Positions 6,822 through 10,796 of a DNA stretch of 10,796 nucleotides are shown one piece after another. A program made the translations under genes and the position numbers. Under the pieces are notes generated by a model. That model was given only the letters and a program-made list of their open reading frames with translations, had not been told where the DNA came from and ran no database searches. Source of the stretch: a virus (lineage: Duplodnaviria > Heunggongvirae > Uroviricota > Caudoviricetes); the IMG/VR virus record IMGVR_UViG_2690316318_000025, positions 1 through 10,796 of that record; one strand, given 5' to 3'. Position 1 is the stretch's first letter. Every line of letters begins with the position of its first letter.

Positions 6822-7303
6822 CTGGACATGCAGCAATCCTCGACATGTGCTGTGGCAGTCGCATGTTCTGGTTCGATAAGAATGACGACCGGGCGATATT
6901 TAGCGATATCAGAAAGGAAGAGCACACATTGTGTGATGGACGACGCCTGATTATCAGTCCTGACCTGATAGCTGATTTTCGTGCACTACCATTTGCAGAC
7001 GCATCCTTTTCGATGGTTGTATTCGACCCTCCGCATCTTGAGCGTGTTGGTGATAACGCCTGGATGGGAAAGAAATATGGACGGCTGAATAAAGATACCT
7101 GGCGTGATGATTTACGGCAGGGATTCAAAGAAGCCTTTCGTGTGTTGTGGCCATACGGCGTTCTGATTTTTAAATGGAATGAAACGCAAATACCTGTTCG
7201 CCAGATATTGGCACTGACCGACAGAAAACCTGTTATCGGTCAACGAACAGGAAAGGGTGACAAGACCCACTGGATTATTTTTATGAAGGAGGGCAACCAG
7301 TGA
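6818..7303 (+). CDS. Small SAM-dependent methyltransferase, probably an N6-adenine/N4-cytosine-type DNA MTase with a DPPH catalytic motif, ~161 aa
   Basis: GTG at 6818 overlaps the upstream stop (GTGA), with AAGGAGG RBS at 6804-6810. Alternative starts are ATG 6785 (track ORF) or ATG 6845. Motif I-like ILDMCCGSRMFW, acidic FSDI, and motif IV VVFDPPH. No adjacent restriction endonuclease candidate, so an orphan MTase. Confidence 0.6.
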   Translation: MTGHAAILDMCCGSRMFWFDKNDDRAIFSDIRKEEHTLCDGRRLIISPDLIADFRALPFADASFSMVVFDPPHLERVGDNAWMGKKYGRLNKDTWRDDLRQGFKEAFRVLWPYGVLIFKWNETQIPVRQILALTDRKPVIGQRTGKGDKTHWIIFMKEGNQ

Positions 7304-8022
7304 GCAAGATTGATTATCAGACGCTACGGGAACGTTATTCACCTAAGCCAGTACCTGAGTGCTCTGTTTGTGGCGAGGAAATGTCAATACAGCGTATATC
7401 TGGAGCACATGTCGTTTATGCCTGCTCCAGTTATGGTGGTGATGGAGATTTCAAAATTGGTCGAACACTTGCCGACGAACATTATGAAAAATCACGCGTA
7501 ACAGTAGTTGATGACAGTGACCCTGATGTGATTGCACTACTGGACGAACTGGAGGCAGCAAAATCAAAACTCAACGAGCAGCGTGAGTATTACGAAGGTG
7601 TTATCTCGGATGGAAGTAAGCGTATTGCTGAACTGGAGAAAAGCGAAGAGCAACTCATCAATGAGCGTGACCATGCTGAGTCTGCTTTAGATGATATGTA
7701 CTTTGCAGCAACCGGTAACAGGCCGGAGTGGAGCAACTGGTTCGGCTTTTCAGATGCTGTCGATGCCGTGGTTGACAGAATTGCTGATTTAGAAGCTAAA
7801 CAATGCATTGAAGAGATGAGTAAACAAAGTTGCGAAGCTCGGGAGCGTGATTTGTTTGAATCATGGGTAATGCATTCAATTTGTATTTCCAAATCGACGC
7901 TTGAAGGATTGCGCACCGAAACTGGATACCGTAACGCGACCTTATCAGGAACAGACTTCAACCGCATGTGGAAACAATGGAAATCTATCCGCGCCGCTGG
8001 CATTCGCATCAAAGGAGAGTGA
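7300..8022 (+). CDS. Ead/Ea22-like early protein (Cys cluster plus coiled coil), 240 aa
   Basis: GTG start at 7300 overlapping the upstream stop (GTGA), RBS GAAGGAGGG at 7286-7293. N-terminal CxxC...C cluster (CSVCGEEMS...YACSS) and a central coiled-coil-like segment (LLDELEAAKSKLNEQREYYEG...AELEKSEEQLINERD). Family call is from memory of Ea22-like proteins. Confidence 0.45.
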   Translation: MSKIDYQTLRERYSPKPVPECSVCGEEMSIQRISGAHVVYACSSYGGDGDFKIGRTLADEHYEKSRVTVVDDSDPDVIALLDELEAAKSKLNEQREYYEGVISDGSKRIAELEKSEEQLINERDHAESALDDMYFAATGNRPEWSNWFGFSDAVDAVVDRIADLEAKQCIEEMSKQSCEARERDLFESWVMHSICISKSTLEGLRTETGYRNATLSGTDFNRMWKQWKSIRAAGIRIKGE

Positions 8023-8023
8023 T

Positions 8024-8215
8024 ATGAACGGACAAATATCAATTGTTCGACCGGGAGCATGTGACGATCGCGAGATACGAATGATTATTCGTCTGGCGAT
8101 GGGGAAAACAATAACTGCTCTCATTACTCCTGAAAATCTCGCATTAGCATTAACAGGAAAGTCAGACTTGCCAGTAGAGCTAAAGCTGCGAAATGTTGAG
8201 ATTAAGGTGAAATAG
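8024..8215 (+). CDS. Hypothetical small protein, 63 aa
   Basis: ATG 8024 (internal Met of track ORF 7901..8215) with AAAGGAGAG RBS directly upstream; it starts 2 nt after the upstream stop. No domain recognised. Confidence 0.5.
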   Translation: MNGQISIVRPGACDDREIRMIIRLAMGKTITALITPENLALALTGKSDLPVELKLRNVEIKVK

Positions 8216-8217
8216 TT

Positions 8218-8952
8218 ATGAATACTCTTACCAAAGAATGGTTACAGAACACGATTACCAGCATTGAGTCAGCACGGGATGAAATACCGTTCGGACTCGA
8301 TGAAGATCAAAACAACATGCTTACCGCATTAAAAATTGCACTGGCATCACTGGCAGCAGTATCGGATGAACGAGCAGCCTATGAATTATTTATGGAGAAG
8401 CGTTTCGGGGAATCTGTAGATCGCCGTAGGGCAAAAAATGGCGATAGAGAATACATGGCATGGGATATGGCGCTTGGCTGGATTATCTGGTGTCACCGCG
8501 CCGCCATGCTTCAGGGTAGCCAACCTGTAAGCCAAACTTACAACTTGCCAGAATTAATCGAAGGCATGGAAGTTTCCATTGATATAAGCACTTGTGATGC
8601 TGATTTAGGTAATCGCTATTTCGGCACCGTCACCGAAGCGTTAGAACTTGATACAGCCAAGAATGGTTACATCCTCTTGGTTCAGGACGCAGAGCCAAAC
8701 TTCGATGTAAATGGCAACTCTCCGGGAACTCCGGATAGTTGGATAAGCTGTAGTGATCGAATGCCTGAAAAGGGCCAGAACGTGCTTATTTCGGTGAATT
8801 TCGATAGCTCTCTGGTTGAACCGCTAATATGCTCCGCACGCTATACCGGAAGCACCTTTCGGCGCGGAGATGCAACGATTAAGCCGGGTAATGGTATTGA
8901 GCAAGCAACTCACTGGATGCCGCTACCGGAACCGCCGCAGGAGGTGAAGTGA
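8218..8952 (+). CDS. DUF551-domain phage protein (unknown N-terminal domain plus C-terminal DUF551), 244 aa
   Basis: ORF 8218..8952 (+). The C-terminal segment WISCSDRMPEKGQNVLISV...ATHWMPLPEPP matches the DUF551 pattern (W...P.....VL...HWMPLPEPP) common in enterobacterial prophage early regions. Confidence 0.7.
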   Translation: MNTLTKEWLQNTITSIESARDEIPFGLDEDQNNMLTALKIALASLAAVSDERAAYELFMEKRFGESVDRRRAKNGDREYMAWDMALGWIIWCHRAAMLQGSQPVSQTYNLPELIEGMEVSIDISTCDADLGNRYFGTVTEALELDTAKNGYILLVQDAEPNFDVNGNSPGTPDSWISCSDRMPEKGQNVLISVNFDSSLVEPLICSARYTGSTFRRGDATIKPGNGIEQATHWMPLPEPPQEVK

Positions 8953-9524
8953 TGAACAACTTAATGATCGACCTTGAGACGATGGGGAAAAATAAGGATG
9001 CACCGATCGTTTCCATTGGCGCGGTGTTCTTCACTCCAGAAACCGGAGACATCGGACAAGAATTCTATGCGGTTGTCAGCCTAGACAGTGCTATGAAGCA
9101 AGGAGCTACACCTGACGGCGATACCATCCTGTGGTGGTTGAAACAAAGCCCTGAAGCGCGAGCTGCAATCTGTATTGATGATACTTTGTCGATCAGCGAT
9201 GCTCTCTCAGAACTAAACCATTTCATTAACCGGCACGCAGACAATACGAAATATTTAAAAGTCTGGGGTAACGGGGCCACCTTCGACAACGTAATTTTAC
9301 GTGGAGCTTACGAGCGAGCAGGACAAATCTGCCCGTGGGCGTACTGGAATGACCACGATGTACGCACGATCGTTACGCTTGGGCGTTCCATGGGATTCGA
9401 CCCCAAAATGGACATGCCTTTCGATGGCGAACGGCACAACGCCCTGGCTGATGCCCGTCATCAGGCAAAATATGTTTCCGCTATCTGGCAGAAATTAATT
9501 CCTGCCACCAGCACAGAATTATGA
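8952..9524 (+). CDS. 3'-5' exonuclease, DEDDh (DnaQ-like) family, 190 aa
   Basis: ATG 8952 with GGAGG RBS about 7 nt upstream; the track ORF starts at GTG 8949. Exo motifs: IDLETMG (Exo I, D-x-E), WGNGATFDNVIL (Exo II), ERHNALADARH (Exo III with His). Confidence 0.8.
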   Translation: MNNLMIDLETMGKNKDAPIVSIGAVFFTPETGDIGQEFYAVVSLDSAMKQGATPDGDTILWWLKQSPEARAAICIDDTLSISDALSELNHFINRHADNTKYLKVWGNGATFDNVILRGAYERAGQICPWAYWNDHDVRTIVTLGRSMGFDPKMDMPFDGERHNALADARHQAKYVSAIWQKLIPATSTEL

Positions 9525-9560
9525 TTTTCCCGGGTGCAGCCGGTTTTGATGGAGAAAATT

Positions 9561-9842
9561 ATGAACACCTTGTTTTTACTGATGGCTGAATTCAATACCC
9601 CAAACATTGAACTCTCAGCAGTTAGCCAAAAGTACTTTGGTATGAGTCCAGCCACGGCAGAAGCAAAAGCAAACGCTTGTAAGTTGCCCGTTCCAACATA
9701 TCGCATCGGCACATCACAAAAAGCAAAACGTTGCATCAATATTCAAGATCTTGCGGAATACATAGACAAAAGGCGAGAAGAAGGACGTATCGAGTGGGAA
9801 CAGGTCAGAACAGTCAAACAGAAGGACAAAGAACATCACTAA
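9561..9842 (+). CDS. Excisionase-like DNA-binding protein (PrtN/AlpA-like), 93 aa
   Basis: ATG 9561 with GGAGAA RBS upstream; the track ORF begins at 9534. MNTLFLLMAEFNTPNIELSAVSQKYFGMSPATAEAKANACKLPVPTYRIG... resembles PrtN-type excisionase/activator proteins. Last gene of the rightward operon, followed by a strong terminator. Confidence 0.55.
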   Translation: MNTLFLLMAEFNTPNIELSAVSQKYFGMSPATAEAKANACKLPVPTYRIGTSQKAKRCINIQDLAEYIDKRREEGRIEWEQVRTVKQKDKEHH

Positions 9843-9843
9843 A

Positions 9844-9871
9844 GAAAAAACCCGCCTGAAGGCGGGTTTTC
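9844..9871. terminator. Bidirectional rho-independent terminator
   Basis: A-tract (9844-9850), stem CCCGCC (9851-9856), loop TGAA, stem GGCGGG (9861-9866), then TTTT (9867-9870). It lies between convergent genes (9561..9842 + and 9890..10063 -). Confidence 0.8.
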
Positions 9872-9889
9872 AAAAAGCACCAGCTATGA

Positions 9890-10063
9890 TCATGCTGCTT
9901 TGCGACGACGAAGCTTACCCTGCTGCTCTTTACCAGAGACAGTAGCGTGAGTGAACGCATTAGGAGCAGCCTTCATCAGAACTTCAACAGCAGCACCCAT
10001 ACCTGCGAATGCTTTCATTGTGTCGAACTTAACCTGTGGCTTGGTTGCTTTTTGATCTTTCAT
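9890..10063 (-). CDS. Small Lys/Ala-rich basic protein, 57 aa, function unknown
   Basis: Not in the ORF track (under 60 aa). ATG at 10063..10061 with GGGAG RBS about 8 nt upstream; stop TGA at 9892..9890. Translation: MKDQKATKPQVKFDTMKAFAGMGAAVEVLMKAAPNAFTHATVSGKEQQGKLRRRKAA. Codon choice resembles well-expressed enterobacterial genes, and it ends at the bidirectional terminator. Confidence 0.5.
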   Translation of the reverse strand: MKDQKATKPQVKFDTMKAFAGMGAAVEVLMKAAPNAFTHATVSGKEQQGKLRRRKAA

Positions 10064-10133
10064 AGAAAACTCCCGAGACAGTAAAGGCGTCTCTAACCCT
10101 TTCTTTAAAGCTAGCTTGTTTCGCTAACTTATG

Positions 10134-10154
10134 CCAATCGATCATGTCGATTGG
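10134..10154. promoter_or_regulatory. Palindrome CCAATCGA-tcatg-TCGATTGG, candidate regulator-binding site
   Basis: Eight-bp perfect inverted arms separated by 5 bp, lying 70-90 bp upstream of the 57-aa gene in an AT-rich intergenic region (10064..10259). Confidence 0.3.
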
Positions 10155-10259
10155 TGACATCGTTTCTTAGTAGTTTAAGCACAAAACGACTGCCATAGAT
10201 GTACCTTTAAGGTAATCTGGACGGGTATCCTACAATTTGTAGACCCTTCTCGTCTATAC

Positions 10260-10796
10260 CTACTGAGCAAATTTAAGAAAGATATCCTGCAGCTCATCAA
10301 TGACTGCAGACATCACATAACCGCACTGTTCCATGCGGAAACCAAAAGACTCGTAATACTGCACCAGTTCTGGTACTGGCTCTACAATGTGGACAACTTT
10401 ACATTCAACAGCTTTACAAAATATAAAAGCACTCATAAGAGTGAGTAAAACCATGCGCCCTTTCAATGGGTGAGATTCATCTTCTCTAGAAAACCTTTCG
10501 ATCATATGGATACGAAAGATGTTTTCTTCAACCCCATAAACACAAATTGCTGCTCCTGATGGTATTCCCTGAACCCGACCTTGCTGAACAAGTTTTATGC
10601 AGAACTCATACTTTTCTCTGGAGTTGCCATAGGTGCTTAACGCATAGTCCCATTCAAGCTCACCATAGCCACCACACAGAATCTTGTAATCATCATCACT
10701 GAGCGGACCAACAGCAAGAGGTAAGCCGACATGATCAATAATCAACTGGATATTGTTACGTACAGATTGACCTATCTCGTCTAGGGTAAGCATCAT
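10260..10796 (-). CDS. GNAT-fold acetyltransferase-like protein (divergent motif A), 178 aa or longer; start at or beyond the window edge
   Basis: ORF 10260..10796 (-), stop TAG at 10262..10260; the N-terminal MM codons sit on the last bases of the window, so the true start may lie outside. The segment HPLKGRMVLLTLMSAFIFCKAVECKVVHIVEPVPELVQYYESFGF fits the GNAT beta4-alpha3...beta5-alpha4 pattern (R/KxG...L....A...G...V.L.V...N..A..FY...GF). AT-richer than the prophage genes. Confidence 0.45.
   Translation of the reverse strand: MMLTLDEIGQSVRNNIQLIIDHVGLPLAVGPLSDDDYKILCGGYGELEWDYALSTYGNSREKYEFCIKLVQQGRVQGIPSGAAICVYGVEENIFRIHMIERFSREDESHPLKGRMVLLTLMSAFIFCKAVECKVVHIVEPVPELVQYYESFGFRMEQCGYVMSAVIDELQDIFLKFAQ

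Follow-up and report, generated by a model that had tools for sequence, protein, structure and literature searches.

A mobile gene pair for an acidic GNAT-fold protein and a small basic partner at the attachment-site end of an mEp460-like dusA prophage

The closest described counterparts of the locus analysed here, a pair of minus-strand genes at the right end of a 10,796-bp stretch of viral DNA (hereafter the window; positions 1–10796 of the IMG/VR record IMGVR_UViG_2690316318_000025), are the type II toxin–antitoxin (TA) systems of the GNAT/RHH kind (TacAT, AtaRT, KacAT and ItaRT), which are likewise mobile two-gene modules formed by a GNAT-fold protein of about 175 amino acids (aa) and a small partner. 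The tRNA-binding GNAT toxins have basic surfaces. In the prophage-like element KpLE2 of Escherichia coli, TopAI (YjhX)–YjhQ also combines a small protein with a protein of the GNAT family, and provides a precedent for a GNAT that acts as the antitoxin of a small prophage-island toxin. A different kind of counterpart is found in the lambdoid morons (bor, lom and the stx site), optional units with their own terminator and promoter-like element that are placed between conserved phage genes. Finally, elements with dusA-specific integrases insert in the 5' end of dusA, supply a replacement 5' end, and have int beside the rebuilt dusA, an architecture described by Farrugia et al. (2015; PMC4482086). 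Here we report that the two genes form a phage-borne cassette, or 'moron', on the minus strand between the excisionase gene xis and attP of an mEp460-like dusA prophage. The order of its elements is a promoter-like element, a gene for a 177-aa GNAT-fold protein, a structured leader of about 190 nt, a gene for a 57-aa protein, and an intrinsic terminator.

The 953-bp region that ends the window (9844–10796) shares 99.5% identity with a segment of the packaged mEp460 phage genome, where the gene order is xis(+), gp24(−), gp23(−), 339 bp, int(+) and dinI. Upstream of the GNAT-fold gene, in the chromosomes of E. coli CT02 and A1, 146 bp separate its start from a fragment with the first 35 codons (105 bp) of the host dusA, beyond which we found yjbM, zur, yjbJ, dinF and lexA. 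Strain A1 is the best match when the window is compared as a whole; its int and a full-length dusA are located about 44 kb away, adjoining pspG, qorA and dnaB. The phage integrase contains the Phage_integrase domain, and it is this tyrosine integrase that sits beside the rebuilt dusA. The alignment of attP with the two junctions shows three zones, namely identity up to a stretch within the dusA 5' region, then about 85% similarity, where the dusA 5' end carried by the phage is aligned with that of the host, and then unrelated sequence. On both sides of the att core there are GGTTCCC repeats (L001:9950-10290 and L002:12950-13300, L numbers being those of the loci fetched for comparison), which are probably the arm sites of the integrase. 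The host junction is thus in the 5' end of dusA, about 100–165 bp past the end of the window, and both leftward genes are phage cargo and not host DNA. The suggestion, made in a preliminary description of the window, that the terminator following xis marks the prophage/host junction does not hold, since both genes sit between xis and int in the packaged mEp460 genome. The same description had correctly remarked that no integrase follows the excisionase-like gene; we found none anywhere in the window, because attP is situated between the cassette and int, so that in the lysogen int moves to the opposite end of the prophage. Being located between xis and attP, the cassette is the last phage DNA before the host junction. 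The insertion in the 5' end of dusA, the replacement 5' end and the adjacent tyrosine integrase are all observed here, a likeness to the dusA-specific elements that concerns the carrier and not the cassette.

The association of the two genes was analysed in 108 fetched loci carrying a relative of the large protein, down to 43% identity, with Franconibacter, Enterobacter, Pseudescherichia, Edwardsiella, Photorhabdus, Xenorhabdus, Hafnia, Salmonella and Shewanella among the genera covered. The small gene is present downstream, on the same strand, in every one of them, at a distance of 93–200 bp, or 409 bp in a single Photorhabdus locus (L029), where the GNAT gene is decayed and the small gene intact. 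It also accompanies the GNAT gene in 361 of 361 E. coli records (an equal number cover at least 80% of the two-gene query), and three remote relatives of the large protein (profile E-values of 2.5e-17, 4e-14 and 5e-10) have an open reading frame (ORF) of 52–58 aa located 81–110 bp downstream; two of these three ORFs share the FD(T/V) motif or an AIEMLIRA-type helix, and a basic or -KAA end. Among the loci examined there was none with the GNAT gene and without the small gene. The small gene is found in 566 E. coli records in all, about 205 more than the GNAT gene, and two phages also have it without this GNAT allele. The opposite charges of the two proteins are conserved as well. The two genes are inherited as an obligate pair, and the small ORF, which had previously been regarded as a separate gene, is the conserved partner of the GNAT gene.

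In E. coli and Salmonella the pair occupies the xis/attP end. Elsewhere it stands between the holin gene and a Q antiterminator, which may belong to any of three PHROG families, inside a sheath/tube/baseplate cluster of Photorhabdus, at a prophage end in Shewanella and, in the case of remote relatives, beside a P4-type integrase or a resolvase. As it occupies these different sites with its TAYAAT element and its terminator in tow, we conclude that the pair moves as a unit among unrelated phage and island sites. Like the lambdoid morons, it is an optional unit between conserved genes that is replaced in relatives, while the flanking xis and att are conserved, and several of its relatives occupy the gap between Q and holin, as the stx genes do in Stx phages. 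Unlike these morons, it consists of two genes that are conserved together, with a structured RNA between them, and it occurs at no fewer than five kinds of site, one of them a cluster of tail genes. The earlier proposal of accessory, moron-like cargo at the att-proximal end of the prophage is therefore borne out, and so is that of a cargo hotspot next to att, given that in sister phages and in the three E. coli genomes inspected, out of about 205 records that lack this GNAT allele, the slot holds a TA pair with a Panacea domain. In all five inspected contexts that lack this GNAT allele (these three genomes and two phages), a Panacea-domain gene (PanA, PF13274) and a gene for a protein of 128 or 139 aa stand between the 57-aa gene and attP in place of the GNAT gene and spacer (L004:5260-6248; L005:5259-6247; L122-L124:3719-4707). 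The PanA pair ends 39 bp before the intact small gene, which there lacks the structured leader, and similarity to the window stops at about position 10076. The proteins being unrelated, PanA pairs are alternative cargo of the same slot and not a homologue of the cassette. Genes linked to defence are also found beside the pair: in Hafnia the gene immediately upstream is a candidate for defence, PDC-S33 (RelA_SpoT domain, E = 1e-112; L118:2150-3109), and a CBASS patatin effector with a DncV-like cyclase lies beside a remote pair (L133:2187-3913).

Some of these loci deserve a separate comment. In the Photorhabdus cluster (L008:111-14537; L009) the genes run from a Q-type antiterminator to the tail terminator, sheath, tube, tape measure and baseplate, with no head genes in view, and this locus may be a tailocin. 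A second insertion point, between the 57-aa gene and xis, is occupied by a CoiA-like gene of 344 aa in one E. coli strain (L122:2333-3367), and by a 155-aa gene with a helix-turn-helix and two transmembrane segments in one Salmonella strain (L114:4381-4848). Four cassette sites are on E. coli records labelled as plasmids, including NZ_CP081716.1 (37.7 kb) and NZ_CP126947.1 (205 kb), the first of which, from strain CX04, is perhaps not a plasmid but the circular genome of a phage.

The large gene (10260–10793, minus strand; mEp460 gp23, WP_000956557, phrog_4350) codes for an acidic protein of 177 aa. The ORF as listed has 178 aa (10260–10796), but translation really begins at the second ATG (10793), with the N-terminus MLTL...; since the relatives begin in this way (30 aligned), the gene is complete in the window, ending 3 nt short of its edge. 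No match to the large protein was obtained in Pfam, NCBIfam or PADLOC at E ≤ 1, the search of PDB sequence profiles returned only chance matches (gp41, armadillo designs), and a Pfam scan of 10 remote relatives, used as a bridge to a named GNAT family, gave nothing. In PHROGs, both the large protein and the small one (phrog_2741) belong to families with no function assigned. The predicted structure, a confident one, nevertheless establishes a GNAT fold, with the order β1-α1-α2-β2-β3-β4-α3-β5-α4-β6, and its fold neighbours include TacT3, TacT2, AtaT and KacT, among many others. The earlier label 'GNAT-like' is thus supported by the predicted fold but not by any sequence profile, and what is established is the fold and not membership in a named subfamily. 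The family comprises 51 clusters at 90% identity, almost all from Enterobacterales plus one from Shewanella, and a search of 1.84 billion proteins gave 94 representatives at 50% identity (E ≤ 1e-3). Its invariant residues include H97, E100, H109-P-L-x-G113-x-M115, Y148, G152 and F153. In the alignments E139, in β5, and Y148, in the YYESFGF motif, appear to resemble E103 and Y115 of RimI, and the hhalign comparison of the family profile with a RimI sequence covered only 14 columns (the YESFGF motif), with 1.8% probability. The protein is acidic in all 38 distinct members (isoelectric point, pI, of 4.3–4.9 and charge of −8 to −18). The gene is present in 361 E. coli records, that is, in 358 of 5426 complete genomes (~6.6%), including O157:H7, O145 and O111 strains, and also in Salmonella. 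Such a distribution, together with a prophage or mobile element in every context inspected, contradicts the scenario, put forward earlier as a possible refutation, of housekeeping genes of the core genome.

The small gene (9890–10063, minus strand; mEp460 gp24, WP_000654815) encodes a basic protein of 57 residues, 9 of them Lys, with a pI of 10.5, the values for the family being 9.6–10.8 for pI and +5.5 to +8.7 for charge. The protein has the helix FDTxKAFAGMGAAVEVLMKAAP in its middle, QGK as an invariant motif, and a basic tail that closes with -KAA. Across members the conserved parts are FDT, the helix GMGAAVEVLMKAAP and QGK, and nearly all end in -AA or -AVA. C-terminal -AA ends resemble ClpXP signals. 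The gene is under purifying selection, with dN/dS of 0.11–0.35 against its relatives, and no family was found for its product in Pfam, NCBIfam or PADLOC. The AlphaFold2 (AF2) model of the small protein alone has low confidence (pLDDT 61) and presents one helix (residues 15–32), with most of the remainder disordered. For the same pairs of loci (the window versus L015, L016, L018 and L022), synonymous divergence is 0.27–0.38 in the small gene and 0.77–0.96 in the GNAT gene, and the lower values of the small gene could reflect separate recombination histories or a constraint at the nucleotide level.

The 196-bp spacer between the two genes (10064–10259) corresponds to the 5' leader of the small gene, on the minus strand, as indicated by RNAalifold and by the counts of paired positions. 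Its hairpins are located at 10240–10256, 10202–10214, 10134–10154, 10108–10130 and 10075–10093, and the small gene has a GGGAG Shine–Dalgarno sequence at 10070–10074; local hairpins flank both the GNAT stop codon and this sequence. With 16 diverse spacers RNAalifold recovered three helices, one of which, helix 2 (10134–10154), is the 8-5-8 palindrome noticed earlier, CCAATCGA-TCATG-TCGATTGG. This helix is present in 16 of 16 relatives, where it shows changes from C-G to U-G and from A-U to G-U, and two pairs with double changes, whereas helix 3 has four double-changed pairs. In the three helices 90.3% of the cells of the alignment are paired, against 17–46% in controls with slid partners, and their covariation score was reached by none of 500 shuffles. 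Single-sequence folding gave z-scores of −3.0 and −2.7 for the two strands, which do not separate them, and for this reason the strand was judged from the asymmetry between G-U and A-C cells: 35 against 8, which fits RNA of the cassette (minus) strand better than that of the opposite strand or duplex DNA. This asymmetry is suggestive, as many of the cells are inherited within clades. The scan of the spacer against Rfam 15 produced no family at gathering score, only sub-threshold matches of terminator type. Taken together, the covariation analysis points to the spacer being a conserved structured RNA leader, of which the palindrome would be one hairpin.

As regards signals for expression, a block TAGACG-N18-TAGGAT (or TACGAT) is found at 10227–10256, on the minus strand, in all Enterobacteriaceae spacers, where it either overlaps the GNAT stop or comes after it. 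The block agrees with the consensus at 8 of 12 positions and received no call in the promoter scan, and it may be a weak internal promoter of the small gene, or else leader hairpin 0. A promoter-like TATAAT is located about 30 nt upstream of the GNAT start on the minus strand, past the right edge of the window. This element (TAYAAT) is with the cassette in all contexts, and no good −35 was found. At the other end, a G+C-rich intrinsic terminator hairpin (9846–9871) is shared by the convergent xis operon (+) and cassette (−), and is kept 3' of the small gene in other genera and at other insertion sites. It has 11 pairs, 6 of them G-C, and a T-rich minus-strand tail, TCTTTAGTGA, after the T-run. 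The description of a strong bidirectional terminator is accurate in that the hairpin forms on both strands and is strong for the minus strand, but less so for the plus strand, whose tail has only four T and is weaker. The cassette thus has its own terminator and, for a promoter of its own, a candidate. In lysogens, the promoter of the host dusA is orphaned and, with the first 35 codons, lies 146 bp ahead of the GNAT start, on the same strand and pointing into the cassette.

When compared with the GNAT/RHH systems, the cassette differs in having the partner downstream instead of upstream, with no RHH/DUF1778 protein, in the structured leader that separates the two genes, and in the lack of any profile relation. 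Its enzyme is also strongly acidic, whereas the tRNA-binding toxins have basic surfaces. With TopAI (YjhX)–YjhQ it shares the pair of small protein and GNAT-family protein in a prophage-like element, in the opposite gene order and with a small protein outside the YjhX family. Our full-text literature search, by phage name, accessions and topic, retrieved no description of either gene. What was already known is the carrier element and the existence of att-proximal cargo; the cassette itself represents a family not characterised before, whose architecture is unusual.

With regard to function, we tentatively propose, at somewhat less than an even chance, that the pair is a TA-like or abortive-infection module. 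The GNAT-fold protein would be an acyl-CoA-dependent acyltransferase, and the small protein would bind it directly via opposite charge and restrain its activity, as suggested by the opposite charges and by the disorder of the small protein when alone. The small protein would be made in excess from its own structured and stable leader, possibly with the contribution of an internal promoter, and would probably be short-lived, given this disorder and an -AA end like that of ClpXP substrates. On its loss, in phage infection or stress, the freed enzyme would modify a basic cellular target, tRNA being an unlikely one because the enzyme is negatively charged. An enzyme of this kind could not be retained without the small protein, which would explain why the small gene is seen without the GNAT gene and the reverse never, the asymmetry expected if the GNAT is the toxin. 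For the explanation as a whole, that is, a mobile cassette with a TA-like function, we consider the chances to be about balanced. The more specific proposal of an undescribed and widespread mobile TA or abortive-infection system, composed of an acidic GNAT with no profile and, obligatorily coupled to it, a separately expressed downstream partner with a structured leader and an -AA degron, and directed at a target other than aminoacyl-tRNA, is doubtful.

Several observations speak against a TA-like function. Neither protein matches known profiles of toxins, antitoxins or defence proteins. In the β4–α3 loop, HPLxGxM is found where the GNAT motif Q/R-x-x-G-x-G/A is expected, so that the acetyl-CoA loop is atypical, and the equivalence of the catalytic Glu and Tyr, as well as the -AA end as a degron, are our own readings of the alignments. 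The small protein has no recognisable DNA-binding fold and, in contrast to the GNAT/RHH systems, its gene follows that of the enzyme after a long spacer. This gene is also kept intact beside the PanA pair in the five contexts mentioned above, where it may have a GNAT-independent role. Finally, the co-occurrence of the two genes also fits an enzyme–substrate or enzyme–cofactor pair.

A non-toxic pair of this last type, in which the Lys-rich small protein is either the substrate that the GNAT acetylates or an adaptor through which it finds its target, is the alternative that survives best, even if we consider it unlikely. The modified or complexed small protein would then be an effector of lysogenic conversion, acting on nucleic acid, the ribosome or the membrane. 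It is less probable still that the two genes are unrelated accessory genes that hitch-hike together, with the palindrome as the DNA operator of a regulator. The similarity to sister phages does break exactly between the genes (at about 10076), their synonymous divergences differ as described above, and the GATTGG half-sites are conserved in sequence; however, the pair is maintained in all 108 loci, down to the lowest GNAT identities, as well as in the remote relatives and across at least five different insertion contexts, and the changes in the helix are G-U compatible on one strand only, which argues for RNA and not for an operator. A reversed polarity, as in TopAI (YjhX)–YjhQ, with the small protein inhibiting growth and the GNAT-fold protein neutralising it, is quite improbable. 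This precedent favours it, and so does the Panacea-domain antitoxin gene that, in the contexts inspected, takes the place of the GNAT gene upstream of the small gene. On the other hand, the PanA gene has its own adjacent partner of 128 or 139 aa, the small protein matches neither YjhX nor any other Pfam family, and its gene has a strong Shine–Dalgarno sequence, a structured leader and a strong terminator, which point to a high independent expression that would be unusual for a toxin. The alternatives offered in the preliminary description, of host genes past the junction or of a TacT/AtaT toxin with its RHH/DUF1778 antitoxin outside the window, have only the resemblance of the fold to TacT3, AtaT and KacT and the proximity of the true junction to the window end in their favour, and they are most improbable in view of an acidic protein encoded by a gene that 93% of E. 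coli genomes lack.

Three candidates were rejected. The host-gene reading is ruled out by the presence of both genes in the packaged mEp460 genome. A partner gene outside the window is ruled out by the 146 gene-free bp that separate the GNAT start from the dusA fragment in the lysogens, and by the 339 bp up to int in the phage, which leave no RHH/DUF1778 gene. Membership among the tRNA-acetylating toxins of the TacT/AtaT type is ruled out by the lack of an RHH gene, the downstream partner and the acidic enzyme.

Concerning its setting, the window contains the early-left and immunity arm of a lambdoid prophage, with genes that include a LexA-type cI, yfdP/Q/R-like genes, ead/Ea22, a DUF551 gene, a 3'-5' exonuclease gene and that of a PrtN-type excisionase. 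This last gene, xis (9534–9842, plus strand), is outside the cassette and ends the early-left operon; its product matches PF11112 (E = 4e-23) and phrog_1300 (excisionase), and it is also annotated as an excisionase in mEp460. The G+C content (GC) of 9844–10796 is 0.430, against 0.476 in the rest of the window, which places it in the lowest 4% of windows of the same size. Thus the AT-rich shift reported past the terminator is a modest drop, which is confined to the GNAT gene (0.417) and the spacer (0.413), but there is no step at the terminator, as the GC of xis is already low (0.427) and that of the small gene is 0.477. The two leftward genes, the 196-bp spacer, the 8-5-8 palindrome and the terminator are all present as previously reported, and overall the earlier observation is partly confirmed and its interpretation partly supported. 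The prophage of strain CT02 is chimeric or a remnant, in which Mu/P2-type genes for baseplate and tail fibres and an invertase gene abut the cro/cI region (L002:1-6000), and its dusA end has no integrase. In phage Lys8385Vzw, a gene of the NleG family of type III effectors (PF06416, E = 5e-48) is found just beyond dinI, on the other side of attP (L004:8641-9354).

If the pair is indeed a TA or defence module, it would represent a new GNAT architecture, in which the enzyme gene comes first, the downstream partner is not of the RHH type and an RNA leader separates the two, and a protein family that current defence and TA finders have overlooked. Even with a mundane function, the annotation of the locus is corrected, as the genes are phage cargo and not host genes, the partner is inside the window, and the palindrome would be an RNA helix. 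In either case, the locus reveals a slot at the dusA-proximal end of lambdoid prophages in which different modules are swapped.

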